A stretch of 28,129 nt of DNA from Isosphaeraceae bacterium (GCA_044351075.1 JBILGL010000001.1:1-28129), one strand, 5' to 3'; shown: positions 5,001-28,129, counted from the stretch's first letter. The notes: generated by a model not told the origin, from the letters alone. Numbers and translations are program-made.

Positions 5001-5176
5001 AGAACACCGGTAAACTGACCATCGGCCGGGCCGATGGTTCAACCGAGACGGTGAATTCTGGCGATGTCTCTGCCCGGTCGCCTCAATCCGGCTCGATCAT
5101 GCTTCCCGGCCTTGTTGATCGTATGACACTTGGCGAATTTCGCCAGCTTGTCGGTTATCTGCGAAGTTTGAAGTGA
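2060..5176 (+). CDS. PVC-type heme-binding CxxCH protein (glucose/sorbosone dehydrogenase-like beta-propeller + HEAT-like helices + C-terminal cytochrome c)
   Basis: N-terminal signal peptide; LFAEQPQIVTP, DANGDGKA, GFWNPF, DNDPD and FRPVGV motifs of planctomycete membrane-bound dehydrogenase domains; CLNCH at 4808-4822 followed by GGLVGPDLT and SIMLPGL. Confidence 0.88.
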   Translation: MSCTVILKKFGKRLLFIIFGSLLLTSAPFASVSAQDEASVTRAAEERGEKPRSLDDRLSVTLFAEQPQIVTPTGLDIDNAGRVWALESNTHFRPENYKGHGSDRLLVFEDANGDGKAEKETVFADGFKYAMSVLVRPGGKVYVATRREVILLEDDNADLKPERRKTILTLDTKGDYPHNGLAGLAIDPLDHLYIGLGENLGENYRLIGSDNETLIGGGEGGNVYRMRLDGSGLKQVATGFWNPFASGFDAFGRLFTVDNDPDSRPPCRLIHIVPGGDYGYRFRNGRRGTHPFSAWNGEIDDTLPMTAGTGEAPSGVAAYEGSSLPAEYRGKLLATSWGDHRLDLFELQSVGAGLKSRLKPLIVGGANFRPVGVAVGPDGAIYLTDWVLREYTIHGKGRIWKIQAKNAPAGNQRQIKLNEIESGKQPELHLADSDIVVRRAAARKAATTRHGQGELRLVLKDDAKPMRARLESLWALARIQPKQGGLSAEDLGELLKYRTVLATAAVEVARISPFYQSNEIKIPNLPEWQQALQEAWRDPADPMVSTGPKQDYDPYFPLAVLDYWTSHPSENLQWPTSAELQRGWLDPFIRRGLIRFMAVHPRHEGKIEDSWNAAGSTTEKVMILSAARMSEPRKTEWAAHVLGDDNPQIRREALRWIAEEGLNPLLPDLDRVLDQPGVDLNLITALSAAKWQLEGKKPADWEKRGLGPDAVGYLSPRWPAGLRLAVLRSLPVGAPELTEKLLLELLNQAEGEFRQKLISRLIQLKNPSDAAVKLVFAEWDKAPSAEWADALAAWANMTSPSAAETRKRLIATFEKGPIDLQFAAARSLRGPIQAKDETARKALLDRAIFAVRLKKEDAAEWADQARVAVGLESMPDELREALPNRPADLIAWVRTLTAPADVEAGRRVFAHPQGPGCLNCHKVQGSGGLVGPDLTTYAAGRTPETMIQSILAPAAEVSPQFAPWVIELKDGRTLEGMIVEENTGKLTIGRADGSTETVNSGDVSARSPQSGSIMLPGLVDRMTLGEFRQLVGYLRSLK

Positions 5177-5197
5177 TTTTCAGCATGAAATGAAATC

Positions 5198-5253
5198 GTA
5201 GGGCACGTGCAACGTGCCAATCCTTTGAATTCGGCACGTTGCACTGGACCTAA
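5198..5253. repeat. REP doublet (REPIN-like): GTAG-type REP plus a degenerate inverted copy
   Basis: GTAG (5198-5201) followed by the perfect palindrome GGCACGT-GCA-ACGTGCC (5202-5218). Inverted copy at 5233-5253 (reverse complement TTAGGTCCAGTGCAACGTGCC, 17/21 identical). Confidence 0.65.
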
Positions 5254-5564
5254 GACTGAAGGCAATTGGTCGGGTCTTTGCTCTTTTGTCCTAGAGAATG
5301 TCCAAAATTATATGGTTAATATTGACATTGTATGATTTTAAGTTATTTTGATAATTATCATCAATCTGCAGTTGACACTCGCAATGGAGTAACGAAAAGT
5401 CATCTTCTAGCATAACCTAGGCTTCAATTTCAATTTTAGATGGATATTCGTAGCATCTTTGATATTGAAGTAGTCGCCTAATATTTGTGCTGACAGAATT
5501 ACGCCAGCACTATGTATGCCTAAGATATCAATTTAAAATTCTACAAGTCATGGAAGGAACCATC

Positions 5565-6503
5565 ATGTCGGCTCGGCAAATCACTTCATTAGGAAAAATT
5601 TATTGCATGATTGTTTTTGCAATACATCTGCAATGTCATTGTGAATTTGCACGAGCCGCTGATTCCGACATTAATAAATTTATGAAAGAATATGGCAATG
5701 CTGCTAAAGATATTGAAAATCATTTTGAGCGGTTGAGAGGCACTTGTAAGCTGTCGCGACAAGTTGATCTAAAATCAAAAACACGTTTGATCGATAATGC
5801 CACTTTTAATATTGACCATGGAAGCAAGAAGGTCTCGATTCTGAGGTCGCTGAACTCAGGAGAAAAGGGAGATCGCCCGGAATTTGTATATTGTATTGCT
5901 CCTGATTATTCCTTTACAATCGCGCGTAAACCGGGGGAGAAATCGTTTGAGGTTCGTGGTATTGGGTCTGATAAATCCGATATTGTTTCTTACGATAACA
6001 AATTTGGCAGATTTTTATTTGCCCCATTTTCAATTTATGATCAGCCTTTATCAAAATCGGTTCTTTCTAAAAATTTTGAGATTGTTTCGGCACTTGAAGT
6101 TAAACCGAATCAGTTTGAACTTGAATATCTCATGGGTTCAAATCTTAATAATAAAAAAGATAGGATAAAACTGGTTTTGGACCCCTCAAGAGGATGGGTC
6201 ATTAAAAGTGGTGTGATTTTACCAGGTTCAATTGGCGGAAATGTGAAAATTGAATTTCAAATCGATTATCAGAATGAAGGTACAATAACCCTTCCGAAAC
6301 GTGTTAGATATCTCGAACCGACTGGCCTTGAAACGATCTGCGAATTCACTTCAATTTCAACTGATCCGACAAATGAGAATGAATTTAAAATGGCATTTTA
6401 CGGGCTACCTGAAATGACTCGATCCGGAAACAATTCGACCAGATCCCTTTTTTCGATTTTACTAAGCATGGCTTTGCTTGGGTTAATCGTTGGGGCGGTC
6501 TGA
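5565..6503 (+). CDS. Hypothetical exported protein with C-terminal transmembrane anchor (beta-rich, possibly LolA-like fold)
   Basis: ATG 5565 preceded by GGAAGGA; signal-peptide-like N-terminus ending FARA; C-terminal FKMAFYGLPE followed by hydrophobic SLFSILLSMALLGLIVGAV. The fold is an inference. Confidence 0.7.
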   Translation: MSARQITSLGKIYCMIVFAIHLQCHCEFARAADSDINKFMKEYGNAAKDIENHFERLRGTCKLSRQVDLKSKTRLIDNATFNIDHGSKKVSILRSLNSGEKGDRPEFVYCIAPDYSFTIARKPGEKSFEVRGIGSDKSDIVSYDNKFGRFLFAPFSIYDQPLSKSVLSKNFEIVSALEVKPNQFELEYLMGSNLNNKKDRIKLVLDPSRGWVIKSGVILPGSIGGNVKIEFQIDYQNEGTITLPKRVRYLEPTGLETICEFTSISTDPTNENEFKMAFYGLPEMTRSGNNSTRSLFSILLSMALLGLIVGAV

Positions 6504-6609
6504 GGTATCGTAATCATAAAACCCTGAAAACTATCAACCCTGCTGAATAACCTAATTGGCTTTGAAATTCAACTTCAATGAGATCTATTGATGTTCAAGG
6601 GATGAAACA

Positions 6610-7686
6610 ATGGCTCTTAGATTCCAGAATGATTGTAAAAATCATTTAGATAGAAATCGTTATTCAGGTTTTACACTTATTGAGATTCTCGTTGTCATTT
6701 TGATTATTACATTGCTTATTGGATTACTATTACCAGCCGTTCAAGCGGCACGCGAATCAGCAAGACGTACCGTTTGCGTAAATAATCTCAAGCAAATGAC
6801 ATTAGCTTGCGGAAATTACCACGATGTTCATCAATTCTTACCTAAAGGAAGATCGTATATCATAGAGCCTGGTTATAGTAACACCAGTTACCCTTGTACA
6901 TCTATCATCATTGACCGAAGCTTTCAGATAGCTATTCTGCCTTATATTGAACAATCAAACATTTATCATTCAATTAATACGTCTCGTTCAATATTTGAAA
7001 GACAAAATCAATCAGTCTTTTCAACGGTCATTAACACCTTCGCCTGTCCGAGTGATCCGGATGCGGGCCAACCAAGGCCAGGTTATTCCATAGCCGACGC
7101 CATTTACAGATCTTTTAATCCGTCTGAACCGATGCGACTCTCTGCGACAAGTTATGCCGGAGTTCGTGGCTCATCAATTTTTTCGCCATTTCCATTGCCC
7201 GATTGCACTGTGCCACGTAATCGAATAGCCGATTCCAATGGTTCTATTACGGATATACATGTCTCAATTGCTATGGTGACTGATGGAACGTCAAATACAA
7301 TGGCGATTGCCGAAAAATCGGTTTCAACATTACGTCCACTTCCCACCAGTCAATCCGGGAAACCGTCTCCATTTGAATTCAAAGGCTGGTGGTTTTCGGG
7401 TGATACTGGCGACACGCTGGTTTCAACGTTCTATCCACCTAATGCTTATAGCATTTATCCAAAATCTTCGGTTGAAGCTTGGACCGTTTCTGCTTCGAGT
7501 TTGCATCCGGGTGGCGTGAATGTTTCCATGGTTGACGGTTCAGTTCGTTTCGTCAAAGATACTGTTCAGTCCTGGCATGCAGGAATTGAGGGTTTCATTG
7601 ATTTGAGCCGATTACAAAATCCTGGAATTTGGCAGGCTTTAGGAACAAGAAATGGTGGTGAAGCTATTAGTTCAGATTCATATTAA
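6610..7686 (+). CDS. DUF1559 protein with prepilin-type N-terminal cleavage/methylation motif and H-X9-DG motif
   Basis: GFTLIEILVVILIITLLIGLLLPAVQAARESARR, CVNNLKQM, FACPSDP, DGTSNT and SSLHPGGVNVSMVDGSVRFVKD. Confidence 0.93.
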   Translation: MALRFQNDCKNHLDRNRYSGFTLIEILVVILIITLLIGLLLPAVQAARESARRTVCVNNLKQMTLACGNYHDVHQFLPKGRSYIIEPGYSNTSYPCTSIIIDRSFQIAILPYIEQSNIYHSINTSRSIFERQNQSVFSTVINTFACPSDPDAGQPRPGYSIADAIYRSFNPSEPMRLSATSYAGVRGSSIFSPFPLPDCTVPRNRIADSNGSITDIHVSIAMVTDGTSNTMAIAEKSVSTLRPLPTSQSGKPSPFEFKGWWFSGDTGDTLVSTFYPPNAYSIYPKSSVEAWTVSASSLHPGGVNVSMVDGSVRFVKDTVQSWHAGIEGFIDLSRLQNPGIWQALGTRNGGEAISSDSY

Positions 7687-7817
7687 TTCGCTCATAAAAA
7701 CACTAGTTTTATAATTTCACTCATAGTAATAGGTTAGAAATGGATCAAAGACTTGGATTTCACATGATAAATCCTGCCCTACGATAAAATTAAAATCTAT
7801 TGTTATAGAAAAATAAT

Positions 7818-7853
7818 AAATCCGCGCCGGTTGCAATAAACCGGCCCGGATTT
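7818..7853 (-). terminator. Rho-independent terminator of the Ntn-hydrolase gene (possibly bidirectional)
   Basis: AAATCCG-c-GCCGGTT-gcaata-AACCGGC-c-CGGATTT, 18 bp downstream of the stop at 7872, followed by a T-rich tract on the minus strand. Confidence 0.7.
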
Positions 7854-7871
7854 CATTTCGCGAAATTGCAA

Positions 7872-8915
7872 TTATTCAGGTTTGGCTGGCAGGAAAGCGA
7901 ATGGCTGGGCGTTTTTCATTTGCTTCACAGCGTTGCCGCTGTAAGTTTCACCACCCTTAAGGGCCAGTTTTTTCACGCTGGCATTTTCAGAAAAATCGAT
8001 ATCAGCCAATTCCAGCCAGAAGACATTCGGGCTTGTGGCTGAATCAAAATAGAAAATACGGCTTTTCTGGTTATAGGCGGTGCGCCAGATGGTGCTGGCT
8101 ATGTTTGGGGCGCCTGGTGTTGTCAGGCCCAGCGGCACAGAGACGCTTCGAATGATGCTGAAAACCATTGCAACTGACTTGGCTTCATCCGCAGATTTGG
8201 GCAGATTATTGACATAAAACGAAGCCCTTGCGAAGCGATCGGAGGCTCGGCTGGTGCCGGGTAACATCACCATGCCGCCAATTTCCTCCCAGTATTTATT
8301 CAGGGCAAGTTGTTCGTCGAATGTCGGGGAATTTGTCATCACCTGATATTTGCGGTCGTGATGGATCACCAACTTGCCACCGACATACTCAAAAATCGCA
8401 GAATCGCCAGAAGGGTCGGAAATGGAGAGGTGCCCCTGGGCCGGTTCCTTGTTCGGCAAGATTGGCGCGATGATCGTAAATGGCTCCTGTCGCAGGCCTT
8501 TCACGGCTTCGGCAACGGTTGCATAGTTATCCAGTGTGTATTGAGCCCATGCGGCAATGGAGAGATTGGGCCTGTTGGCCACTGGCTTACCGTAATTTGA
8601 TTCCACCAGATAAAGCACATTGGCAACAAGGCCTTTTTCATTGATGCCATCGACGCTGGCCACGCCGTAGAATGTGCAAACAACCGAGCCATATTTGCTC
8701 GTCCATTTCATCGAATTCGGTCCGGCGGCTCCGTCGCGAGCCATACCGCGCGGAAAGCTGTAGATTTCAGATCCCGGGTCTTCGGCCCAGTCCATTGAGC
8801 GGGCAACAAATACATTATTATTCGGCCCAAGATAAACGCAGCGGGTGCATGCATTCGCAACACCGGCCGCCATACCTGAAATCAAGGCAAGAGTGAATAA
8901 AAGTTGTTTGGTCAT
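7872..8915 (-). CDS. Secreted linear amide C-N hydrolase (choloylglycine hydrolase / penicillin V acylase family, Ntn hydrolase)
   Basis: AGGAGG RBS upstream of ATG 8915; signal peptide MTKQLLFTLALISGMAAGVANA followed by CTR (N-terminal Cys nucleophile); RSMDW, DGINEKGL, MTNSP, PGTSRASDRF and STIWRT motifs. The extension to 9176 is considered non-coding. Confidence 0.9.
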   Translation of the reverse strand: MTKQLLFTLALISGMAAGVANACTRCVYLGPNNNVFVARSMDWAEDPGSEIYSFPRGMARDGAAGPNSMKWTSKYGSVVCTFYGVASVDGINEKGLVANVLYLVESNYGKPVANRPNLSIAAWAQYTLDNYATVAEAVKGLRQEPFTIIAPILPNKEPAQGHLSISDPSGDSAIFEYVGGKLVIHHDRKYQVMTNSPTFDEQLALNKYWEEIGGMVMLPGTSRASDRFARASFYVNNLPKSADEAKSVAMVFSIIRSVSVPLGLTTPGAPNIASTIWRTAYNQKSRIFYFDSATSPNVFWLELADIDFSENASVKKLALKGGETYSGNAVKQMKNAQPFAFLPAKPE

Positions 8916-9192: not shown

Positions 9193-9981
9193 TCAGGTGC
9201 CGAATTCGGTGCGTCGGCCATTGAGCTGGCCTTTTAGCCGTTCGATGATCGAGCTGTGCATCTGGCTGACGCGCGACTCGGAGAGATCAAGCGTTGCCCC
9301 GATCTCTTTCATCGTCAGTTCTTCGTAGTAATAGAGAATGATAATCAGGCGTTCGTTGCGGTTCAGGCCACGCGTGACCATACGCATCAGGTCTTTACGC
9401 TGAAGGCGGTTGGTCGGGTCTTCGCCCTTTTTGTCTTCGAGAATGTCAATCTCGCGGACATCTTTATAACTGTCAGTCTCATACCACTTCTTGTTCAGGC
9501 TCACCAGCCCGATTGCATTTGATTCGGCTGCAAGCTTCTCGAATTCCTGATGGCTCACACCCAGCTTGTCGGCAATTTCCTCGTTGGTGGCGGGCCGGCC
9601 AAGCTCTACTTCGAGAGCTTTTTTGGCTTCCTCCATTTTGGAATGCTTGCTGCGCACCAGCCGGGGCACCCAGTCCATCGTGCGGAGCTCGTCGAGCATT
9701 GCCCCGCGAATTCGCGGCACGCAATAGGTCTCGAACTTCACGCCACGCCCCAGATCAAAGGCGTCGATCGCGTCCATGAGCCCAAAAACGCCCGACGACA
9801 TCAGGTCGTCAAGCTCCACGCCATCAGGAAGACGCTGCCAAATACGCTCGGCGTTGTATTTCACCAGATGAAGATATCGCTCGACCAGACGATTCCGAAG
9901 CTCTGTGGTCGGGTTCTCCTTGAACTTCGCCCAGACTTCGCTTACGTCCATATCTACTTGGGTTGACATCCAGACCTCCAT
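9193..9981 (-). CDS. fliA: FliA/WhiG-family RNA polymerase sigma factor (sigma-28)
   Basis: DDLMSSGVFGLMDAIDAFD, KFETYCVPRIRGAMLDELRTMDWVPR, region 4 LTMKEIGATLDLSESRVSQMH. The start could also be ATG 9969. Confidence 0.93.
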   Translation of the reverse strand: MEVWMSTQVDMDVSEVWAKFKENPTTELRNRLVERYLHLVKYNAERIWQRLPDGVELDDLMSSGVFGLMDAIDAFDLGRGVKFETYCVPRIRGAMLDELRTMDWVPRLVRSKHSKMEEAKKALEVELGRPATNEEIADKLGVSHQEFEKLAAESNAIGLVSLNKKWYETDSYKDVREIDILEDKKGEDPTNRLQRKDLMRMVTRGLNRNERLIIILYYYEELTMKEIGATLDLSESRVSQMHSSIIERLKGQLNGRRTEFGT

Positions 9982-10327
9982 GTCGTCGCCGAGAGTCGCG
10001 CACTTCCTGTGCTATGCCTTCAAATGTCAAAAACAATCATTTCTGAAAATTCGCCTGTCAGGCTTTTTCAGATCAAACTGCTTGTGTCACCTGAGGAGTG
10101 ACCCCCGATAAGACCAGGAATCACCAGTATCTTTATCGTCATGACTCGATACCGGCCTTGATCATATTCTCGGAAAATTCCGCAAAATCGTTATTTCTTT
10201 ACAATCAGCGGACTGTTGGTTAACGCGGCCCATGTTTAACGGTCAAGTTCGTTCGGAAAGGGAGAATCCGACGCTTTTACGATTAAACCGGGTGATGATT
10301 CAACTGGCGGAAATCGATGGAAATTCG

Positions 10328-11386
10328 TCAGCCGGCACGCCGAGCTTTGGAATTGGTGATTTCCGTTGTATCGATGGTATCTGCCTGTTGAAATTGCCGG
10401 AAAAAGTCAGGCAATTCGGTCGAGGCCGATGTCCACTGCTCAAAATTGCAATGAATTTTTGTCGCCAGGCGTTCGATATCGCGGGCGGCTGTTGAAAGCC
10501 ACCAGCCCGGTGCCTGAACGACGGGGATTCGTGCCTTGATGGCCCGGGGCACGTCAAGATCGTCTCGAACAGAGCCGAGATGACTGACCGATAGCCCCTG
10601 AAACAGCCGCGAAGCCTGAATCAGCCGGTCTGCTGATTCATCGCCCGCCTTGTGTGAGCCCGCTTTATTGACAACTGTCACAATCTTCAGATGGCTGCCC
10701 ACTGCCCTTCGCAGGTGCGAAAGCAGGGCGTGGCTTGCGGCCAGCGAAGCTTGCTCTGGTGTTGTGGTCAATACCATTCCATCGGCCACGACGGCCAGAG
10801 TCTGGGATCGGGCCGTCAGGCCGCTGCCGGCGTCAACGATGATCCAGTCAGCAACCTGGCTGTCTCGCAGCTCAGTTACCACCTGGGCCACCAGCTCGTC
10901 AGTAGCCGGGCCCACCAGCCAGGCTTCGTTCATTCTAGCAGCGTGTGATCCAGCAAGCAGCTTCACGCCTTCTGGGCCTTCGACCAAGGCTTCCCAAGGG
11001 GCGACCCGGCCGGAGAGCACATCTTCCAGATCAACTGTTGGCCGTCGGTCGCAGATGATCTCAAGCTGCCCCAGGCCATAGTCGGCGTCAACCAGCGCCA
11101 CTCGCAAATTCTTTTTCGCAAGTGAAACGGCCAGGTTCAGGGCGAGCGTGCTTGTGCCTACGCCTCCCTTGCCGCTGGCCAGGCAAAGTACCCGTGTCGG
11201 GTGTGGAATGACTGCGTCAGACTCCGGGCAAGTCTCAGCCAGCACTTCCGCATCGTCGGAAGTGTCGGCCTGAATCGTCCAGGCTGAGTTGTTCGCGAGC
11301 TTTTCCGCAGACGAATCAAGCGGCTGAGATTCATCAGCAGCTTTGGCGGCAAATAAGTGTCGAAGCGATTCCGCTTGATCAGACAT
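10328..11386 (-). CDS. flhG: FlhG/FleN-like MinD/ParA-family protein with altered Walker A
   Basis: N-terminal DQAESLR (FlhG DQAxxLR motif), SGKGGVGTST, VDADYGLG, IIVDAGSG, TTPE and VVNKA motifs; lies upstream of fliA as in flhF-flhG-fliA clusters. Start placed at ATG 11386. Confidence 0.8.
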   Translation of the reverse strand: MSDQAESLRHLFAAKAADESQPLDSSAEKLANNSAWTIQADTSDDAEVLAETCPESDAVIPHPTRVLCLASGKGGVGTSTLALNLAVSLAKKNLRVALVDADYGLGQLEIICDRRPTVDLEDVLSGRVAPWEALVEGPEGVKLLAGSHAARMNEAWLVGPATDELVAQVVTELRDSQVADWIIVDAGSGLTARSQTLAVVADGMVLTTTPEQASLAASHALLSHLRRAVGSHLKIVTVVNKAGSHKAGDESADRLIQASRLFQGLSVSHLGSVRDDLDVPRAIKARIPVVQAPGWWLSTAARDIERLATKIHCNFEQWTSASTELPDFFRQFQQADTIDTTEITNSKARRAG

Positions 11387-11760
11387 GGCATCCCTGCCTT
11401 GCGTCATGGGGGGCGAAGAATCGGAATATTGCAATGAAGCAGGGCCCTGAGCCAGATCCATCCGGCATCATTGAAACAGTCTTTCATGGCTGTTTCACCC
11501 GACTTGGGCAGAATCATACCAATTTGACCAATTCTGGCAAGCCGATTTCACCAGATATTTCTCTTCGATCAGGCACTGCCAGAAAAAAGTCTGATTATAA
11601 CGAAAAAATTATGCAACAATGTAGTAAATGGGTAAAATAAGTTGATTAAAGTTTATTTGTCGATTAAAGATTATGAATAGTTATTGCCTGATCAATATGA
11701 TCGTGAGCAATGCGCCACCAACGTGATACAACCTGATTGACACCAGGAGTAGTTTTAACG

Positions 11761-13473
11761 ATGTTTCGGTCTTCGAAATTCTATTTTCTTGCGATTCTTG
11801 CGGGCTTTGCCAGCGACGCAGCTGCTTGTAGCGTCTGTCGCCCGGCAACGCTCAAGTGTGCGCCACGCACAATTGCCGCCCCTTGTGCGACGACCATTCC
11901 ATGCCAGGTTTCGGCCCCAGCCTGTGAAGTGCTGGTTCCCCGCACCGTCACAAAATTTCATAACGTGACAGAAACCATCTGCGAGGAAGTGATTGACACG
12001 CATAACGTTACGAAATATCGTACCGAAACCAAGACCGAAAAGGTTCCAGTGAGCCGCACCGTTTATGACACTGAAGAAGTCAAAACGAATGTAACTCGTT
12101 ATCGCACGGAATATAAGACAGAGACCGTTCCCGTTACCCGTACGGAATATGATTTGGTTCCTGTCAATACCGAAGTCACGCGTTATCGCACGGAGTACAA
12201 AACGGAAACCGTTCCAACCACTCGGGTTGAATACGACAATGTGCCTGTTAAGAGCAACGTGACACGTTATCGCACGGAATATAAGACAGAGACCGTTCCC
12301 ACCACCCGCACTGTTTATGAGCCTGTTCAAAAGACCCGTAACATTCAGGTGCAAGTGCCAGTGACGGAAAACTTTGAAGCTTCTGTCACCAAAACGGTTT
12401 ATGACACCGTCACCAGCAAGCAGAAGCGTTACGAGCCTTACACCGAGACGATCACGGTGAAGGAAAAGGTCATGCAGCCGGAAGTCTTCCAGACGACCCG
12501 CAAAGAGACCCGCACCGTGCATGTGCCAGTACAGAAGATAGTCACCCGTGAAGTCATGCAGTGCCAGGAAGTGATTGAAGATCGTGGCTGCTGGGTGAAT
12601 CAGGCCGTGCAGACAAGCTCTGGCTGCACAAGTGGCTGTGGCGTTTCCGGCAAGTGCGGTGGCTGTGGTGGCCACAAGAAGAGCCTCGGCTGCGGCTCGT
12701 GCGGTCATGTTTGTCAGGGCGTAACTTATGCCTGTCAGCAAGTATGGGTGTCACGTCCGGTTCGCACGTCGGTGCCTGTCAAAGTGCAAGTTCAGGACTG
12801 TGTCACGGAAATGGTCGCCCAGAAGCAGGAAGTTGAAGTTCCAGCCACCGAAACACGCATGGTTCCCAAAGAAGTCGAGAGAACGGAATGCGTAACCAAG
12901 ACTCGTGAAATTGAAGAACCTGTCACGCATCAGGTTGCCCGTTCTGTGGAAGAAAAAGCTCAGGGAACACGGGTTTCATACAAAACCGAATCCCGGGTTG
13001 AAACCTACACAGAGATGGTCGCTCGTCAGATCAACGATACCACCACGCAAACTGTTGCCGTGCAGGTGCCTTATCAGGAAGAAGTGACCAACTACGTGCA
13101 GAAGGCACGCGAAGTGAAAGAACTTGTCTCACGCCAGGTTGCTGTGCAGGTGCCTTACACCGAAACAGTCACTAATCACGTGCAGAAGCCACGCCAAGTA
13201 ACGGAAACGGTTACCCGCAAGGTTCCTTATCAGGTTCCTTACACAGAGACAGTGACATCACACGTTCAGAAGGCCCGTCTGGTAACAGACATGATTGAAC
13301 GGACCGTCTGCACGCAGGTTCCTTACACCGAAACGGTGCAGGTCAAGCGCATGGTACCCAAGACGATCACTAAGCAGGTTCCTTACTGCGAAACCGTCTG
13401 GGAACGTCAGGCCCCAGCCGCTGCCGCTGCACCGGTAGCTGCTCCAGCCGTCGCTCCTTCTGCCCAGAAGTGA
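11761..13473 (+). CDS. Exported Thr/Val/Glu-rich repeat protein with Cys/Gly-rich core (planctomycete YTV-like envelope protein)
   Basis: AGGAG RBS upstream of ATG 11761; signal peptide ending DAAA; VTRYRTEYKTETVP and QVPYTETV repeats; Cys-rich N-terminus and centre; Ala/Pro tail. Confidence 0.85.
   Translation: MFRSSKFYFLAILAGFASDAAACSVCRPATLKCAPRTIAAPCATTIPCQVSAPACEVLVPRTVTKFHNVTETICEEVIDTHNVTKYRTETKTEKVPVSRTVYDTEEVKTNVTRYRTEYKTETVPVTRTEYDLVPVNTEVTRYRTEYKTETVPTTRVEYDNVPVKSNVTRYRTEYKTETVPTTRTVYEPVQKTRNIQVQVPVTENFEASVTKTVYDTVTSKQKRYEPYTETITVKEKVMQPEVFQTTRKETRTVHVPVQKIVTREVMQCQEVIEDRGCWVNQAVQTSSGCTSGCGVSGKCGGCGGHKKSLGCGSCGHVCQGVTYACQQVWVSRPVRTSVPVKVQVQDCVTEMVAQKQEVEVPATETRMVPKEVERTECVTKTREIEEPVTHQVARSVEEKAQGTRVSYKTESRVETYTEMVARQINDTTTQTVAVQVPYQEEVTNYVQKAREVKELVSRQVAVQVPYTETVTNHVQKPRQVTETVTRKVPYQVPYTETVTSHVQKARLVTDMIERTVCTQVPYTETVQVKRMVPKTITKQVPYCETVWERQAPAAAAAPVAAPAVAPSAQK
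12007..12342 (+). repeat. Four tandem 84-bp (28-aa) coding repeats, N-terminal arm
   Basis: VTKYRTETKTEKVPVSRTVYDTEEVKTN / VTRYRTEYKTETVPVTRTEYDLVPVNTE / VTRYRTEYKTETVPTTRVEYDNVPVKSN / VTRYRTEYKTETVPTTRTVYEPVQKTRN. Confidence 0.92.
13042..13377 (+). repeat. Four tandem 84-bp (28-aa) coding repeats, C-terminal arm
   Basis: TTQTVAVQVPYQEEVTNYVQKAREVKEL / VSRQVAVQVPYTETVTNHVQKPRQVTET / VTRKVPYQVPYTETVTSHVQKARLVTDM / IERTVCTQVPYTETVQVKRMVPKTITKQ. Confidence 0.88.
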
Positions 13474-13503
13474 TTTGCAGAACGATTATTGACAACTACG
13501 TCG

Positions 13504-13536
13504 AAAAGGGGCCGCCATTGTGCGGCCTCTTTTTTT
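13504..13536 (+). terminator. Rho-independent terminator after the repeat-protein gene
   Basis: AAAAGGGGCCGC-cattgt-GCGGCCTCTTTTTTT; GC-rich stem followed by 7 T. Confidence 0.85.
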
Positions 13537-13551
13537 GCATCATCCCAAAGG

Positions 13552-13631
13552 TCATTAAAGAACTCTTTAATGAGGAGGCAGTTCATTAAAATTTTTGGCC
13601 ACTTTTTTTAATGAGACTTTTTTGATTAAAA
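13552..13631. promoter_or_regulatory. Array of TCATTAAA(G/A) inverted repeats upstream of the Fic gene (putative operator)
   Basis: TCATTAAAG-aact-CTTTAATGA (13552-13573), TCATTAAAA-N14-TTTTAATGA (13583-13614), plus the half-site TGATTAAAA (13623-13631). Confidence 0.6.
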
Positions 13632-13663
13632 TGAATGTGTGATAAATTCAAAAGTGATCGAGA

Positions 13664-14836
13664 GTGGCCAAGCCATTGCGTATTAAAGACTTCAAGCCAG
13701 AAATGCCGGGCTCGTTTGTATCGCTTGCGAGCGGTGATCAGGCTTTTTTGCCGAATCCATTGCCGCCAGAGTGGGAGTTTCCGACAAGACTCTGGCCGAT
13801 GATCAGTGAAGCCAAACGATTGATTGGTATTTTAGATGGAATTGGCCGGGTGCTGCCTAATCCGGCGATACTTCTTCGGCCCACAGAAGATCGCGAAGCA
13901 ATTCAATCGTCTGCGCTTGAGGGCACTTATGCGACGCCGCGGGAATTGCTGCTTTTTGAGCTTGAACCAGAACAACGAGAAGATGAGCCGGATACAGTTA
14001 ACCGGTTTCGTGAAGTTTATAATTATCGCCTTGCCATTCAGCACGCCGTTGCAAGTCAACTTCCGATTTGTCAAAGACTTATGCGCGAGCTTCACAAGAT
14101 TTTGCTCGAAGGCGTGCGTGGCCAGCATACAGATCCCGGTCATTTTCGCCGGATTCAAGTCGCAATCGGGACAAATAAACGATTCATTCCGCCGCCTCCA
14201 CAAAACTTGCCCAAGTGCCTTGATGAACTTGAAGTCTATATTAATCAGGAATCTTCGTTTGACCCGCTGATCGACTGTTTTCTGGTGCATTATCAATTTG
14301 AAACAATTCATCCTTTTGTTGATGGAAATGGCCGCATCGGCAGGCTGATACTGGCTTTGATGATCCAGCGCAAATGCCACCTGACGAAACCCTGGCTTTA
14401 CCTCAGCGATTACTTCGAACAGCATCGGGATGATTACATACAGGGTCTTTATCAGGTGAGCACGCTGGGAAACTGGGAAAAATGGATTGAATTTTCGCTT
14501 CAGGCTACGATTGAACAAGCCAGATCAACCATCGTTCGTTGTGAAAGCCTGCTGGCTATTCGCGAGCAATTCCGCCAGCGCCTCAATGAAACTGGCGGAC
14601 ATGTAAGGCTACATACAATCATTGATCAAATCTTCATTACACCAATGATTCGAGTGACAGACGCTCAAAGCATTTTACAAGTGACATATCCAACAGCCAA
14701 ATCCGATCTCGAAAAACTTGTGAAAGCGGGAATTTTGCAAAAGCTAAATGATTCACCCGCAATTACTTACTATGCACCTGAAATATTCAAAGTGGCTTAC
14801 GACGACATCTCCAGTAATAACGATAAGGAGATTTAA
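13664..14836 (+). CDS. Fic-family protein (class II: N-terminal inhibitory helix, Fic core, C-terminal HTH-like region)
   Basis: Canonical HPFVDGNGRIGR active-site motif; SSALEG matching the (S/T)xxxE(G/N) inhibitory motif; C-terminal VTYPTAKSDLEKLVKAGIL helix-turn-helix-like segment; GTG start. Confidence 0.92.
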   Translation: MAKPLRIKDFKPEMPGSFVSLASGDQAFLPNPLPPEWEFPTRLWPMISEAKRLIGILDGIGRVLPNPAILLRPTEDREAIQSSALEGTYATPRELLLFELEPEQREDEPDTVNRFREVYNYRLAIQHAVASQLPICQRLMRELHKILLEGVRGQHTDPGHFRRIQVAIGTNKRFIPPPPQNLPKCLDELEVYINQESSFDPLIDCFLVHYQFETIHPFVDGNGRIGRLILALMIQRKCHLTKPWLYLSDYFEQHRDDYIQGLYQVSTLGNWEKWIEFSLQATIEQARSTIVRCESLLAIREQFRQRLNETGGHVRLHTIIDQIFITPMIRVTDAQSILQVTYPTAKSDLEKLVKAGILQKLNDSPAITYYAPEIFKVAYDDISSNNDKEI

Positions 14837-14839
14837 AAA

Positions 14840-17800
14840 TTACCTCGGGCTCAGGCCCCTGAATAATCCCTGGCCAAACCGCCGCGAAATCGGGTTTTGA
14901 TCCAGTGGGCTGCGGGGCGGGGCAACATCATCGCCAAGGGTCCGAAGGGCGTCGAATGTCGAAGGCAGCACATCCAGATGAAATTCAGGGAAAGCCGGCG
15001 TGCCGGAAATGCGGACCTGAAGAAGCTGCCCGGTGGCTTCCTTGATAGCATCCGAAAGCACGGGCAGCTTGAAGCGGTCGCGGCCATAGATCACTTTCAG
15101 GTGGACATCCAGATCGCCTCTGGGCGACATTTCGCCGTCGCCATCAAGGCTGAAGGCATCGCCCTGAAACTTGATCGGGTTAAAGGTCGTCATGCCACGA
15201 TCGATCTGAAAACCGACCTGGGCCGAATCAAATGCCGTTCTGGTTGTGGGTGATAAATTCAGCGCCTTCACAAACCGCAGAAAATCAGGCAGTTCTCCCA
15301 AATCACCCTGCGTAATCTCGGCACTTCCCTGGCCCTTCAGGTTGCGTGCATCGCTGCCGCGACCTTCCAGATCAATCTGGCCGGTCACACGCCCCTTGAT
15401 GTTCTGAGGGCCGGGCACTGTGCGGGCATATTGGGCCAGATCAAGCCCGGTCAGTTTAATCGAGGCCTGATACTGAGGCTCCTGCGCAATCTGCACATTC
15501 ATGCTGCCATTAGCATTCCCGCCCAGAATCACGGCCTGAACGCTGGGCAATTCCACCAGCCCCTTTTCCACATGCACTGGTGCACTGATGTGCTGAATCG
15601 GGAAGCCCTTAAGCATCATGTTTTCAATAGCCAGCACGCCATCGCAGGCAAACTCGCGGCCGTCGTATATGCCCGAGATATTTTCAACCTGCCCCTGCAA
15701 ATTATTCAGCATCCATCCAGCGTCAAACGAGTTGCCATTCAGCACCACTATGCCATTCTGCCAGCGACACCAGGCCGTGTCATCGGCCTTGCCTGACCAG
15801 CCTAATCGCATGTCCGTGCGGAAGGTGATCGCCCGGCCGTCGTCCAGCCGACGGGCAAAATGAGCCATCACCGGCGGCATCTTCTGCCGCAGGCCAGCGT
15901 CAAGCCGAAGCTCTCGTGCCTCGAGTGCCTTTGCCCAGAGGTCAAATTTTCCATCTTTTTCAAGTGTCACCTGTCCCTGTTGCATCGAAACATTTGAATT
16001 TCGAAACAGGAAATGAACGTCGTTCATGGCCACTTTGCCATTGGTCGAAACAAAAGTGCCCTGCACATGATCCAGCGGCAATTCCAGCGGTTTTGGTTGC
16101 TGGTTATCTTCTGAAGGTCTTCGCTGAATCACCAGATTCAGCCGCGTTTCAGCCTCTGGCTTTATGGTAATAATGCGATTATCAATCTGGGCGACCGGGT
16201 CAAGGTCGATCAGCACATCAACATCGGCCGAACCGATCGGATTAATCGTCCTCCAGGTCGTTTTCCACACTTCCGGCAGGCTCAGCCTCAATTGTTCGTC
16301 AAATGGCAATTGATCGGCATGAAGCTCAATGTGTGTGCGCAGCGGTGTCGGGCTGGTCACTGCCGACGCTGCCGGCTGTACCTGATTGCGCTGCTGGGCA
16401 ATTTCATGATGCCTGATTTCGCCATTCTTTTCAGGCAGGCCCTGTGTTCGCCGCCGCGGGAAAGGGGCCTGCGGCGTCTTTCGCGGGCCGATCCGCTCGA
16501 CCCGGCCTCGGCCACTGATCTTCGCCGTACCATTCGAGCCAGAAATATTTTCAAAAACCCAGTAGTCTGGGTGCAATTGCAGCGTTCCCTTCAGGTTGCT
16601 TATAGGATAAGGCATATCGGCCCAGCGGATCGAGCACCTTTCCATCAGTTCAATGGTCGTATGCACTTCCAGCTTGCCAATGGGTGGTTCGCCGGGCTTG
16701 GTCGGCGGCAGTCTGGTGATATGTGCCCTGGCCCTGATTTCACCCGTTGGCTGAAAAGCATCAACCACTCGTCGTGTGTCAGGTGGCAATGCATTGAGTA
16801 AAGTTTCGTCAACTGTCAGATTTTCCGCTTCAAACCGAAGATCGACCTCAGCCCTCGGGCCAGGCTTGCGAATCGTGCCCGTGATGGCTGCCGGGCGATT
16901 ACCCAGCAGCGTGCGCAGGCCACTTTCCAGCGGTGGTTTATCCGGGTTGCCCAGCCGGATCGTATCGCCCGACCAAGTGATCTGCCCCCAGATATGCTCC
17001 AGCGGATAGGGGAAAAATTCGTAGCAAATGGCCACGTCGCGGCAATCGGCATTGAGGCCGAAGCCGATTTCGCCGCCGGGCCGGTTTCGCACCATGCGAA
17101 TGGCCAGATTCAGCTCGCCCCTGGGCAGATATTCCACCCAGAAATTCTGCCACTGTTGTGGCGTCACGCGCTGGAGCCGCTGATCGATCGGCAAGTTTAT
17201 GGCACTCAGCGTAATATCCAGCGGATCAGTGCGCCAGTTGGTCGCACCGCTTCGCCCGGTGGCTCGCAGAATCGTCTTGCCATGATACGCTTCGGCGCGT
17301 TCAATGAGGAGCAGGTCGTCTTTGACGATAAATGTTCCACGAATGTCGTTGAGCGGGAAGGGCAGCTCAGCGCGTTGCAGCCGCCCGCGGAGCATGTCGG
17401 CCCTGACGCGGTAATTGGCTGGACGAATGCCGCCTTTGGCGATTTGCAGCGTGGCTGATTCCAGATAAAGGTTGCAATTGGCGTCGTCAATGCCGAGCTT
17501 TTCCCAATCATTTACCAATTCTGGCTTTAAGTCGCTGATGAGCCGCTGGCTGACCTCAAGCCCGATTACCGACCCGCCCAGCTCAACCAATCCGGTCTCA
17601 AGATTAATCGTCCCCTGAATTTGCAGACGTTCGGCCCAGGTGCCCTGAGCACTGCCATTGAATTTCAGGATCTGGCTATCTTTAGTCGATTCAATCGTCA
17701 GCTCTACATCACGCAAAACGGCAGGCGATGTCTGCTCTTTTGTCTCTTTTGAATTTTGGATGGCTGTGTGCTGGATGAGCTCAAGTGTACCGCGAGTGAC

Positions 17801-25588: not shown

Positions 25589-25629
25589 TTCATTTGCTCC
25601 ATCAATAGATAAAAAATATTAGTGGAATA

Positions 25630-27162
25630 TCATTTTCCTGCCATGTCATCTTTATCCATATCGTCCACACCTGAAATCCACTCGCTCAGCACATCGGCCG
25701 CCTGTTCAACGGGTATTGATTGATCCGTTCGCTTCGCATGTTTTGCTGCCGGCGGTGTCTGGCTTGAAGCATCCATCCGCCATTGATCCGAAAAATCTGC
25801 CGGCATCGGTTTTACGGCAAGATCAAAATCGTTGCTCTTTCGCTGATGAAAAAGCCTTCTGCCGATGAAAATTGCGGCCAACAATCCGCCTGCAATTCCG
25901 CCCATAATCCAAGGCTCGCGCATGGAATGCGAGGTTTTGAGAAGCGTTTTTATTACAGTTTCATTCTTGTTTTCATTTACTGGGGGAATTGTATTTGGAT
26001 TTTCTGATTTGACATCAGCCATTGCAATTGGTTCTTTACCAACCCAATCAAGATTCTCCAGAAGAATCGGGCTAAGCATGGCACTGATCTTTGTATGAAT
26101 CTGCCGCCGCAGCTCTGGTGTGGCACTTTTCTCATCGAAGAGGCCAATCAGGACCCGAGCCCTCACAATCTCTGGCTTCTCATTTTCAGCTTTTTCATTG
26201 AAATCGATCGATACCGGCTCATTGAAATAAAGCACTGGTTTTTCAGGACTTTTAACGGTAGTCGTTGAATTTGCCGATTGTATTTCACTGCTGCGGCTTA
26301 ATGTTATTTTGACTTCCGCATCTCCAAGCCCGGCCACACCACGCCTGATCCTATTTTCCAGCGTTTTCGTTTCGAATCGATCAGCTACTGCTCCATCCGG
26401 CTTTCTCAGCGTATTGGCTGCCTCTCGCTGGCCCAGAATGTAAATATTCTCGGCATCGTGAATGGTAATCTGATCGTCTTTTACGCCTGTTATGCTTGCC
26501 GTGATGATATTGCGAATTTTCTCAAGTGTTTTTTCATTCACAATTTCGCCTATTTTTGGCGGTTCGAGAAAGACCCTTACCCGCCAGGCGGGGCCGCTTG
26601 AATCATTAATAAATCGTCTGGTGGCCGAAAGTGGCTCGAGCGAAACCTGCACATCACTGAATTCGCCGGCGCGGCGGATCAGCCAGGTCAGCTCTTTTTC
26701 TTTTTGATTGCGCTGTCTCTCTTCGCGCTGAACGGGCGATTCCAGAATGGCCAGCGGGCCACTGTTTATCGTGCGAAGTTCTTCCAGCGTTTCGGGCCTC
26801 AGGCCTTTTTTCTCAAGAGTTGACTCAATTTTGGCGAGCTCTGCTGGTCTGACAAAAATGCGGCCGTCTGGCTGAACCCGAAACTTGACACCTGTCTGTT
26901 GCAATTCATTGAGCGTTTTGCGCCGAAGAACTGAATCAAAGCTGCGGCCTTCGTAAAGTGTCGCCCACGACTCTTCCCGAAACGAACCAACAAACCAGAA
27001 TGTGCCGACCAGCATGCCACCAATGACCACCAGCGGTAAAAGCCAGATGGCAATGACCACCGGGCTTGAATGACGAGTGGCAAACTCGGCCGGAATGCTG
27101 CCCGAAATGTTGTTGCCGGTTGGGCCGGGTTCAATCGCGGAGTTCATCGCTGGTTCATCCAT
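25630..27162 (-). CDS. fliF: Divergent FliF/YscJ-family MS-ring-like protein
   Basis: TM1 (IWLLPLVVIGGMLVGTFWFVG); RBM1-like LYEG...ELQQTGVKFRVQPDGRIFVR...LEKKGL; RBM2-like KEKELTWLI...VQVSL...KIRNIITASITGVKDDQITIHD; LENRIRRGVAGLGDAEVKI; TM2 (WIMGGIAGGLLAAIFIG); C-terminal VEQAADVLSEWI (FliG-binding-like). The start may be 27147. Confidence 0.72.
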   Translation of the reverse strand: MDEPAMNSAIEPGPTGNNISGSIPAEFATRHSSPVVIAIWLLPLVVIGGMLVGTFWFVGSFREESWATLYEGRSFDSVLRRKTLNELQQTGVKFRVQPDGRIFVRPAELAKIESTLEKKGLRPETLEELRTINSGPLAILESPVQREERQRNQKEKELTWLIRRAGEFSDVQVSLEPLSATRRFINDSSGPAWRVRVFLEPPKIGEIVNEKTLEKIRNIITASITGVKDDQITIHDAENIYILGQREAANTLRKPDGAVADRFETKTLENRIRRGVAGLGDAEVKITLSRSSEIQSANSTTTVKSPEKPVLYFNEPVSIDFNEKAENEKPEIVRARVLIGLFDEKSATPELRRQIHTKISAMLSPILLENLDWVGKEPIAMADVKSENPNTIPPVNENKNETVIKTLLKTSHSMREPWIMGGIAGGLLAAIFIGRRLFHQRKSNDFDLAVKPMPADFSDQWRMDASSQTPPAAKHAKRTDQSIPVEQAADVLSEWISGVDDMDKDDMAGK

Positions 27163-27361: not shown

Positions 27362-28129
27362 TTACTTCTTCCGGGCCCACATATTCACCCCAGAGCCGAT
27401 GATCAGGTCGTGGTCATAACACCACTCATAAAACCGCCCTTTTTTCTCGGGCCGAAGCTCAAAAGGCTCTTCAAAACCTTCTTCCAGAAACCACTGCCTC
27501 AGCTCTTCCAGCCGATGATGGCTTTGGTATCGGGGCGCATACCAATCATAATTATCGCAGATGCGCAGGCCACGGTCTGCAAAGGTGCTGAAATTAATGA
27601 CCTTGCTGCCAACCTGCTTCACGCCCGGAATGCTGCCGGGAATATCAAGCAGGCGTGCCCAGAATCGCAGAATGCCATCCGGCAGGCGCGTCGTAATGCG
27701 CCGCAGCGCTGAATTCAGCACTTCCTGCGGCCAGGTGTTTCGCCGGTAGAGCCATACGGCCATCCTGCCGCCCGGCTTTACCGACCGGGCCACCCGGGCA
27801 AAGGCCTGGCGAGGGTCGGGGCAATGGTGCAGCACACCAATGGAATAGGCAAAATCAAACGACTCAGGGGCAATCGGCGGATTCAGCAAATCGGCCTGGG
27901 CGACCTGAACATTCGGCAGCTCCCGGCAGTTTTCTCGTGCCTTTTCTACGGCACTTGAAAGATCGAGCCCGATGATAATTGCTCCGGCTTCGCCGACCAA
28001 CCTTGCATAGCGACCCCCGCCAACCCCGGCGTCGAGCACCTTCAAACCGGCCAATTCTGATGGATCTACGCCCGTTTTTGCCGCGAATGTGGCGGCATCC
28101 ATCGCCGGACGAACCACGTCATAGCGATT
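27362..28129 (-). CDS. Class I SAM-dependent methyltransferase, 5'-truncated by the window edge
   Basis: VLDAGVGGGRY (motif I), IGLDLS, QADL, FDFAYSIGVLHH and VKPGG. The frame is open to 28129 (NRYDVVRP...). Confidence 0.88.
   Translation of the reverse strand, partial: NRYDVVRPAMDAATFAAKTGVDPSELAGLKVLDAGVGGGRYARLVGEAGAIIIGLDLSSAVEKARENCRELPNVQVAQADLLNPPIAPESFDFAYSIGVLHHCPDPRQAFARVARSVKPGGRMAVWLYRRNTWPQEVLNSALRRITTRLPDGILRFWARLLDIPGSIPGVKQVGSKVINFSTFADRGLRICDNYDWYAPRYQSHHRLEELRQWFLEEGFEEPFELRPEKKGRFYEWCYDHDLIIGSGVNMWARKK

Follow-up and report, generated by a model that had tools for sequence, protein, structure and literature searches.

Flagellar export genes persist in some bacteria that carry no flagella, known cases being Lysobacter, Buchnera and Chlamydiae. 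The Chlamydiae combine a full injectisome with flagellar orphans that include FliI, and the FliA-family sigma factors of non-flagellated Planctomycetes-Verrucomicrobia-Chlamydiae (PVC) bacteria (Chlamydiae) and of actinomycetes (WhiG of Streptomyces) drive a developmental and not a motility programme; to our knowledge, neither Chlamydiae nor Streptomyces has a compact gene cluster running from fliF to fliA, or a FliG reduced to two domains (mini-FliG). In Lysobacter enzymogenes OH11, which carries no flagella, genes resembling those of the flagellum's type III secretion system (FT3SS) are expressed and non-flagellar proteins are secreted, for which FliI is needed (PMC7688988). Described members of the Isosphaeraceae, a planctomycete family of lakes and soils, reportedly lack motile swarmer cells, and a comparative paper remarks no more than that genes for flagellar assembly have a "poor representation" (PMC5352709); our literature searches brought up no description of the cluster reported here. 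We analysed a stretch of 28,129 nucleotides (the window) from an Isosphaeraceae bacterium (GCA_044351075.1 JBILGL010000001.1:1-28129) that contains four flagellar genes, fliF, mini-fliG, flhG and fliA, which are probably parts of a reduced and conserved basal-body core, retained by the non-flagellated Isosphaeraceae for a function other than motility. The reduction goes much further than in the known cases, as some 13 genes remain, the ATPase, rod and hook were not found, FliG has two domains and FlhB is predicted to be uncleavable, and this state is fixed across a family with cultured members.

Four flagellar genes in the window and the genomes compared

The four genes were identified by listing of open reading frames (ORFs), Pfam and NCBIfam scans and inspection of the translations, and are as follows:

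9193-9981, minus strand: fliA, sigma-28 of the FliA/WhiG family (262 aa; regions 2, 3 and 4 intact)
10328-11461, minus strand: flhG, MinD/ParA-type regulator of flagellar placement and number (377 aa; ParA/MinD family matches)
25034-25588, minus strand: mini-fliG (184 aa; FliG_N and the end of FliG_C, middle domain absent)
25630-27162, minus strand: diverged fliF, MS-ring protein (510 aa; YscJ_FliF, two transmembrane helices)

An earlier reading of the window (the original prediction) had described four intact frames with their interaction motifs kept, and both statements were borne out: all four frames are open on the minus strand, and the translations contain the FliF C-terminal AADVLSEW, the FliG_N domain and, in the N-terminal part of FlhG (residues 28-34), the DQAESLR motif. 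There is no fliE, fliH/I, flhA or flhF within the window.

The source is a lake metagenome-assembled genome (MAG) of 4.63 Mb in 690 contigs, the window being the largest of them; the MAG is 85% complete, so that absences in this MAG alone carry little weight and the case rests on relatives. A FlhA-based scan of named genomes found relatives in Paludisphaera soli, Tundrisphaera sp. TA3 and many MAGs labelled "Isosphaeraceae bacterium", which places the lineage in the Isosphaeraceae, and the locus is present in at least 14 lake-water metagenomes. Comparisons were made with a family panel of 24 Isosphaeraceae genomes from 18 genera, besides the own genome, and with 201 genomes of the class (the class sample), all with a completeness of 85% or more, 48 of them from the Isosphaeraceae; among the Isosphaeraceae searched (24 to 48 genomes), many reach a completeness of 93-100%. 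Four loci of high GC content (L044, L046, L048 and L051) entered the comparisons through tblastn only.

A reduced core is near-universal in the Isosphaeraceae

Within the family panel, FlhA was found in 22/24 genomes, FlgM in 23/24, the N-plus-C architecture of mini-FliG in 23/24, and a FliM/N-like protein at full length in 17/24. The parts of the axial structure gave the opposite picture: FlgE/F/G (TIGR03506) was found in none of the 24 panel genomes and none of the 48 Isosphaeraceae of the class sample, FliE in 0/24, full-length FliG in 0/24 and FliM in one (weakly), while flagellin gave a single weak match below the cut-off, compared with 12 of 16 genomes from other families of the class. 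The best family hits to the FliI model scored approximately 220 bits, which is the level of F1-ATPases, versus 500-590 bits in flagellated relatives, and the flagellated families of the same class gave strong matches to flagellin, FlgE/F/G, FliE, FliM and FliI.

The class sample allowed a comparison of how the two sets of genes are lost. Rod/hook genes were present in 0/48 Isosphaeraceae and FlhA in 47/48, with core genes kept across more than 20 genera; sporadic presence in relatives, as would be seen with neutral decay, was thus not what we found. In another family of the class (f5), rod/hook genes were present in 14/42 genomes and FlhA in 13/42, with repeated loss of both, even inside one genus. 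Complete loss is thus easy where nothing keeps the genes in place. The gate usually goes when flagella go, and its near-universal retention in the Isosphaeraceae is therefore not a matter of inertia.

Three genomes from other families (G025, G027 and G040) have FliF, FliP, FlhA, FliA and FlgM, and rod/hook, flagellin, FliE, FliI and FliM were not found in them; the family to which G027 belongs has flagellated representatives as well. From the tallies per family in the class sample, approximately 14 further genomes outside the Isosphaeraceae are expected to be positive for FlhA and negative for rod genes, in families f2, f3, f4, f9, f12, f15 and f17-f19. As the reduced core also occurs in genomes of other families, the same core may have been retained more than once. 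In G040, FliF and FliG_C domains are found within one 705-aa open frame (C132:10193-11785, locus L141), which looks like a fusion of FliF and FliG that arose naturally in a further reduced lineage.

Gene order and origin of the cluster

In other genera of the family, eleven genes form one compact cluster in the order fliF-like, mini-fliG, fliO, fliP, fliQ, fliR, flhB, flhA, flhF, flhG and fliA, as in G024 (L031, 7611-18942, by Pfam), G008 and locus L040. Cultured Isosphaeraceae, namely Paludisphaera, Singulisphaera and Tundrisphaera sp. TA3, carry the cluster as well. In the flagellated relative G031, the genes run fliE-fliF-fliG-fliH-fliI-fliJ-x-fliK-flgD-flgE-x-motA-x-fliL-fliN-x-fliP-fliQ-fliR-flhB-flhA-flhF-flhG-fliA, where x is an unidentified gene. 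Judged from gene order, the Isosphaeraceae cluster is this operon minus fliE and the block from fliH to fliN, and motA, whose family (MotA_ExbB) also includes ExbB and TolQ, lies inside the stretch deleted from the ancestral order. The basal body and flagellar type III secretion genes of flagellated planctomycetes such as G031 thus share with the Isosphaeraceae the gene families and their order, the anti-sigma factor FlgM and a degenerate FlhG P-loop, while the Isosphaeraceae cluster lacks fliE, fliH/I/J, fliK, flgD/E, motA and fliL. The Isosphaeraceae further differ in having no canonical fliM/fliN, rods or flagellin, a FliG without the middle domain, an FlhB without NPTH, and a FliF in which what may be the collar insert amounts to some 38 poorly modelled residues.

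The flagellar genes had been described as scattered remnants, and this is correct for the window and for its own genus, where same-genus G003 has miniFliG-FliF divergent from FlhA-FlhF-x-FlhG, G006 has a repeat-protein gene divergent from FlhF-FlhA, followed by FliF-miniFliG and a methyltransferase, and G002 has FliF-miniFliG-xseB-ispA-dxs as in the window. It does not hold for the family: since other genera have one contiguous cluster, scattering is a trait of the genus and not a property of the system.

A large protein of the DO-GTPase2 (Double-GTPase 2) type is encoded after flhF in the own genome (L006:3518-5506, contig C152; see also L030:5394-7850) and in G002, with 90% identity between G000 and G002 and a ratio of nonsynonymous to synonymous substitution rates (dN/dS) of 0.06. 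In G001 and G007, mini-fliG is followed by a gene whose N-terminus matches.

FliF and mini-FliG

The own genome has no YscJ_FliF match besides the FliF of the window (39.8 bits, Pfam cut-off 24.4), a protein that reaches only 22.5 bits on the NCBIfam equivalog model TIGR00206 (cut-off 129.75). A structure model of moderate quality (AlphaFold2, AF2; mean predicted local distance difference test score, pLDDT, 60), built on 11 sequences because a word-indexed protein search with FliF yielded no more than 6 relatives, contains the ring-building motifs RBM1 and RBM2 and RBM3-like alpha/beta elements (residues 261-373), and has only a 38-residue segment with pLDDT <50 at the position that a beta-collar would take. 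The best Foldseek matches to this model were FliF (9a67_A, E 2e-16) and MS-ring chains of Salmonella, with SctJ proteins ranking lower; fold and topology of FliF are retained. The C-terminal FliG-binding helix has the motif AAxVLxxW, which does not vary among 11 orthologues whose identity is otherwise 17-52%. The finding is relevant to annotation, as an Isosphaeraceae FliF-like protein with 53% identity is labelled "hypothetical protein" at NCBI.

Mini-FliG matches FliG_N (45 bits) and FliG_C (27.6 bits) above the Pfam cut-offs, without a real FliG_M match, and scores 21.6 bits on TIGR00207 (cut-off 226.7). It consists of the FliF-binding N domain, a Pro/Gln-rich linker and the last helical bundle of FliG_C; in the alignment with canonical planctomycete FliG, the first ~70 residues are joined directly to this bundle, with a linker of ~45 residues in the own genus. 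The protein lacks the middle domain with its EHPQ motif, and in its torque helix other residues stand in place of the acidic pair, so the proposal that motor elements are altered stands for FliG. No full-length FliG was found in the own genome.

Complex prediction for the FliF C-terminus and mini-FliG scored 0.34 against 0.00 for the best control, which gives weak support. In the calibration, 55/80 solved complexes and 3/110 mismatched pairs attained this mark; with a score of 0.60 or less, it was attained by only 7 of those 80 complexes and by every one of the 5 mismatches that passed. The predicted interface places FliF residues 483-500 against residues 13-47 and 69-76 of the FliG N domain, and since similar complexes have already been solved, the prediction shows likeness rather than binding. 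A second small ORF with a FliG_C-like domain only lies directly after mini-fliG in G008 (C33:22857-23117) and also in G012, G013, G017 and G019, and there is none in the window.

The export gate and the parts not found

A whole-genome search for the full flagellar set, suggested by the original prediction, found no complete set in the own genome. It did find a full export gate set (FlhA, FlhB and FliOPQR) outside the window, with FliO, FliP, FliQ, FliR and FlhB on a single contig and flhF following flhA. Flagellar models outscored their injectisome (Sct) counterparts for FlhA (705 bits versus 468 for SctV), FliP (186 versus 147) and FliR (88 versus 49); FlhB was weak (52.8 bits on TIGR00328). 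A 394-aa FliM/N-like protein has a FliN/SctQ C-terminal domain. Flagellin_N, Flg_bb_rod and Flg_bbr_C had no match in the own genome, and FliE, FliM and FliI were not found in it; the compact cluster contains neither FliH nor FliJ, for which no genome-wide search was made.

These results lead us to reject an injectisome as the identity of the system. Injectisomes share with it the export-gate families (SctV, R, S, T and U), a ring of the SctJ/FliF type and an SpoA domain of the SctQ type, whereas the Isosphaeraceae have the flagellar-only parts FliG, FliO, FlhF, FlhG, FliA and FlgM, and no SctN-type ATPase was found.

The autocleavage motif NPT[HE] of FlhB is replaced in all nine Isosphaeraceae FlhB sequences inspected (own and 8 others), in which the C-terminal domain is retained in length, and is kept in flagellated planctomycetes and Firmicutes.

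The FlhG P-loop

The P-loop of FlhG reads GKGGVGTST and does not match the deviant Walker A consensus KGGxxGK[ST], GKGGVGT taking the place of the GKGGVGK that Firmicutes FlhG retain. This Lys-to-Thr change is present in every Isosphaeraceae FlhG orthologue and also in flagellated loci of the Pirellulales type, and flagellated planctomycete FlhG proteins without the P-loop lysine (GVGT or GVGA) were found at L146:6026-7072, L068, L077, L082, L087, L097 and L105, with the FlhG of the flagellated G031 more degenerate still and without a Pfam family match. Across the planctomycetes sampled, flagellated and reduced alike, FlhG thus has the look of a degenerate ATPase. Being common to flagellated planctomycetes, the change is a lineage trait unrelated to flagellum loss, and we rejected the idea of a pseudo-ATPase that arose with the loss of motility; to this extent the proposed remodelling of ATPase elements did not hold.

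Sigma-28 and FlgM

FliA scored 259 bits on TIGR02479 (FliA/WhiG subfamily, cut-off 189.6), and the own genome encodes its anti-sigma factor elsewhere:

C81:2770-3054, minus strand: flgM (94 aa; 40.5 bits, cut-off 25)

In canonical FlgM the export signal lies in the N-terminal segment, and matches in four other Isosphaeraceae genera are full-length, N-terminus included (E 1e-31 to 1e-40). Upstream of flgM, at a distance of 170-220 nt, the own genome and four other genera have an element of the form TAAA/CAAA-N(16-17)-GCCGAT(G/A); the own-genome copy is TAAAGTCGGCACCGTTTCACATCCGATA (site 3246-3274 on C81, ~200 nt before the start). The position of this long leader is conserved across genera, and the spacing of 16-17 compares with 15 in the canonical TAAA-N15-GCCGATAA-type promoter. 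The element is, by its conservation in five genera, a phylogenetic footprint of a putative sigma-28-type promoter.

Further sites were sought by pattern scans. Strict sigma-28 promoter patterns gave 12 hits in the own genome versus 5-14 in shuffled sequences, a family-specific pattern gave 17 hits with a clear downstream gene only for flgM, and neither in the window nor in relatives was a sigma-28 site found upstream of fliF, flhG, fliA or any further apparatus gene.

Selection and expression

Substitution rates were compared between the own genome and the same-genus G002, a pair for which dS is 0.8-2.4, so that the ratios are rough because of near-saturation and are still clearly far below 1. 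The dN/dS was 0.23 for FliF, 0.11 for mini-FliG, 0.11 for FlhA and 0.13 for FlhF, with 0.04-0.14 for the housekeeping neighbours xseB, ispA, dxs and NAD kinase. The core genes compared are thus under purifying selection.

Four river metatranscriptomes contained contigs that are 96-99% identical over fliA, and in two of these runs the contigs span fliA and flhG. Word depth was 16-66 for fliA/flhG, 3-17 for dxs/ispA, 3-4 for fliF and ~0 between 11.5 and 14.7 kb, with fliA having the highest depth of the 19-kb stretch in all four. This unevenness makes RNA a more likely source than carried-over DNA.

Possible functions of the reduced core

The core consists of a FliF ring with a two-domain FliG, the FliO/P/Q/R-FlhB-FlhA gate, FlhF/FlhG, usually the FliM/N-like protein, and sigma-28/FlgM. 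An MS-ring scaffold and a sigma-28 circuit had been recognised from the window; these are indeed parts of it, and the system extends further, to the gate, FlhF, the FliM/N-like protein and FlgM. Every part retained is required either for positioning and assembling the MS ring with the export gate (FlhF, FlhG, FliF, FliG_N, FliO/P/Q/R, FlhB and FlhA) or for operating the sigma-28/FlgM switch, and every part lost has to do with the axial structure, torque or the ATPase. The suggestion that the genes are kept for another job and are not decaying agrees with the low dN/dS (0.11-0.23), with the retention of FlhA (47/48) and mini-FliG (23/24), and with the failure to find axial genes, and we consider it probable that the core is a functional non-motility system. 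It resembles L. enzymogenes OH11 in that a non-flagellated bacterium retains and expresses flagellar export-gate genes that have, in the Isosphaeraceae probably, come to serve a role other than motility, but Lysobacter keeps FliI, FlgD and other hook-basal-body genes, whereas in the Isosphaeraceae the ATPase, rod and hook were not found and a truncated FliG and a putatively uncleavable FlhB are added. The family therewith offers a natural minimal type III export core in which one can ask what gate and ring do alone, and what may be a natural case of ATPase-independent export.

How such a core might work can be outlined as follows. FlhF and FlhG would direct the ring and the gate to a site in the cytoplasmic membrane that is probably a pole or a bud site. 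The gate, if assembled and active, would be powered by proton-motive force alone; flagellar export can run on proton-motive force without FliHIJ. There would be no switch between early and late substrates at the gate, because FlhB has lost its cleavage site, and without a hook such a switch has no role. The gate would export or dock FlgM, and perhaps other substrates, thereby setting the activity of sigma-28 and a non-flagellar gene programme, the output of which is perhaps tied to the pole or bud, since FlhF and FlhG are retained. Sigma-28 is itself the export chaperone of FlgM, and in Helicobacter FlgM acts with FlhA and stays largely cytoplasmic. We put forward a specific FlgM/sigma-28 switch tentatively, as a possibility. 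The full proposal, in which an assembly checkpoint has outlived the flagellum, with a ring and gate devoid of ATPase and rod at the pole or bud exporting or docking FlgM and sigma-28 timing a budding or cell-cycle programme in FtsZ-less planctomycetes, is possible but doubtful. If true, no natural type III export machine smaller than this would be known. The family moreover makes it possible to test whether a sigma/anti-sigma switch of the flagellar type is linked to the peculiar way in which planctomycetes bud in their cell cycle.

Several observations speak against a non-motility core operating in this way. Canonical FlgM belongs to the late substrates and depends on FlhB having been cleaved, and the Isosphaeraceae FlhB is predicted to be unable to cleave. 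The pattern scans gave no confident sigma-28-type promoter at any gene besides flgM. One genome, G028, has lost the apparatus and kept FliA (257 bits) with a weak FlgM match, and sigma-28 would therefore have a gate-independent role. With the query used, the FliM/N-like gene was not found in 7/24 relatives, two of them of the same genus, and FliF evolves fast, with 30-55% identity within the genus. Contigs from RNA libraries may contain DNA, carry no strand information and measure expression poorly.

A general secretion machine, in which the reduced gate exports non-flagellar substrates such as enzymes or toxins to the large periplasm of planctomycetes or beyond and sigma-28/FlgM is merely its regulator, is an unlikely alternative; it would be comparable to what Lysobacter, itself non-flagellated, has in its FT3SS-like system, or Buchnera in its hook-basal bodies. 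The whole gate is kept, FlhA is very well conserved (760-800 bits), and type III export independent of the ATPase is reportedly documented. Secretion of non-flagellar proteins through retained FT3SS genes occurs in L. enzymogenes OH11 (PMC7688988), but the FliI and hook genes that Lysobacter keeps were not found in the Isosphaeraceae. No rod, needle, secretin-like or other conduit gene was seen in or beside the cluster, in a survey with no search aimed at a secretin or needle, and export would therefore end in the periplasm; nor are candidate substrates or chaperones encoded near the cluster.

Rather improbable is a polar landmark or scaffold without export, in which FlhF, FlhG, FliF and FliG would label the pole or the site of the bud and provide an input to budding that does not involve FtsZ. 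Division at the poles is restricted in Campylobacter by FlhG together with MS-ring and switch proteins, and the Isosphaeraceae have kept FlhF, FlhG, FliF and the FliF-binding domain of FliG. The family buds and lacks FtsZ (PMC5352709), which would suit such a role, but a pure landmark has no need for FliP/Q/R, FlhB or a full-length, conserved FlhA with its cytoplasmic domain, and it is the export-gate parts that are under the strongest constraint.

That the genes are neutral relics heading for loss, or belong to a real but cryptic flagellum of which other genes were missed, is very improbable: FliF and mini-FliG are highly diverged and fall below the NCBIfam equivalog cut-offs, the own genome is incomplete and flhA is fragmented in some long-read assemblies of the family, but decay is rejected on the intact frames, the dN/dS values and the retention in more than 20 genera, rod/hook, flagellin, FliE and FliI genes are easily found in every flagellated relative and in none of the 24 to 48 Isosphaeraceae, and described members have no motile swarmer cells (PMC5352709). 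The split flhA genes, in 3-5 frames, were found in G009, G017 and G020, which are few-contig assemblies with a marker completeness of 60-80%, and are probably due to long-read indel errors and not pseudogenes, as the low completeness suggests.

Neighbouring genes and other features of the window

The remaining features of the window are listed below:

5487-6503: orphan ORF in the first low-GC island
6610-7686: DUF1559/N-methyl gene, a planctomycete marker, in the first low-GC island
11737-13473, plus strand: 578-aa repeat protein, divergent from and upstream of flhG, without Pfam or NCBIfam match
18628-20160: orphan gene (510 aa) without family match, in the second low-GC island
20590-24929: xseB, ispA, dxs and NAD kinase, downstream of fliG
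27362-28129, minus strand: class I methyltransferase, upstream of fliF

The unusual neighbours that had been pointed out, namely a methyltransferase beside fliF, xseB after fliG and a divergent repeat-protein gene beside flhG, were all seen. The methyltransferase is a conserved neighbour of fliF/mini-fliG in the same-genus G003 and G006 (L027 and L028). A homologue of the repeat protein (L028:220-1992) is divergent from flhF in G006, and as the gene is divergent from flhG in the window, it recurs beside the flagellar core within the genus; it was not seen adjoining the cluster in other genera, and its depth in the river metatranscriptomes was ~0. Two islands of low GC content (window positions 5000-8000 and 18600-20200; GC 0.39-0.44 versus ~0.52 elsewhere) both look like acquired DNA.

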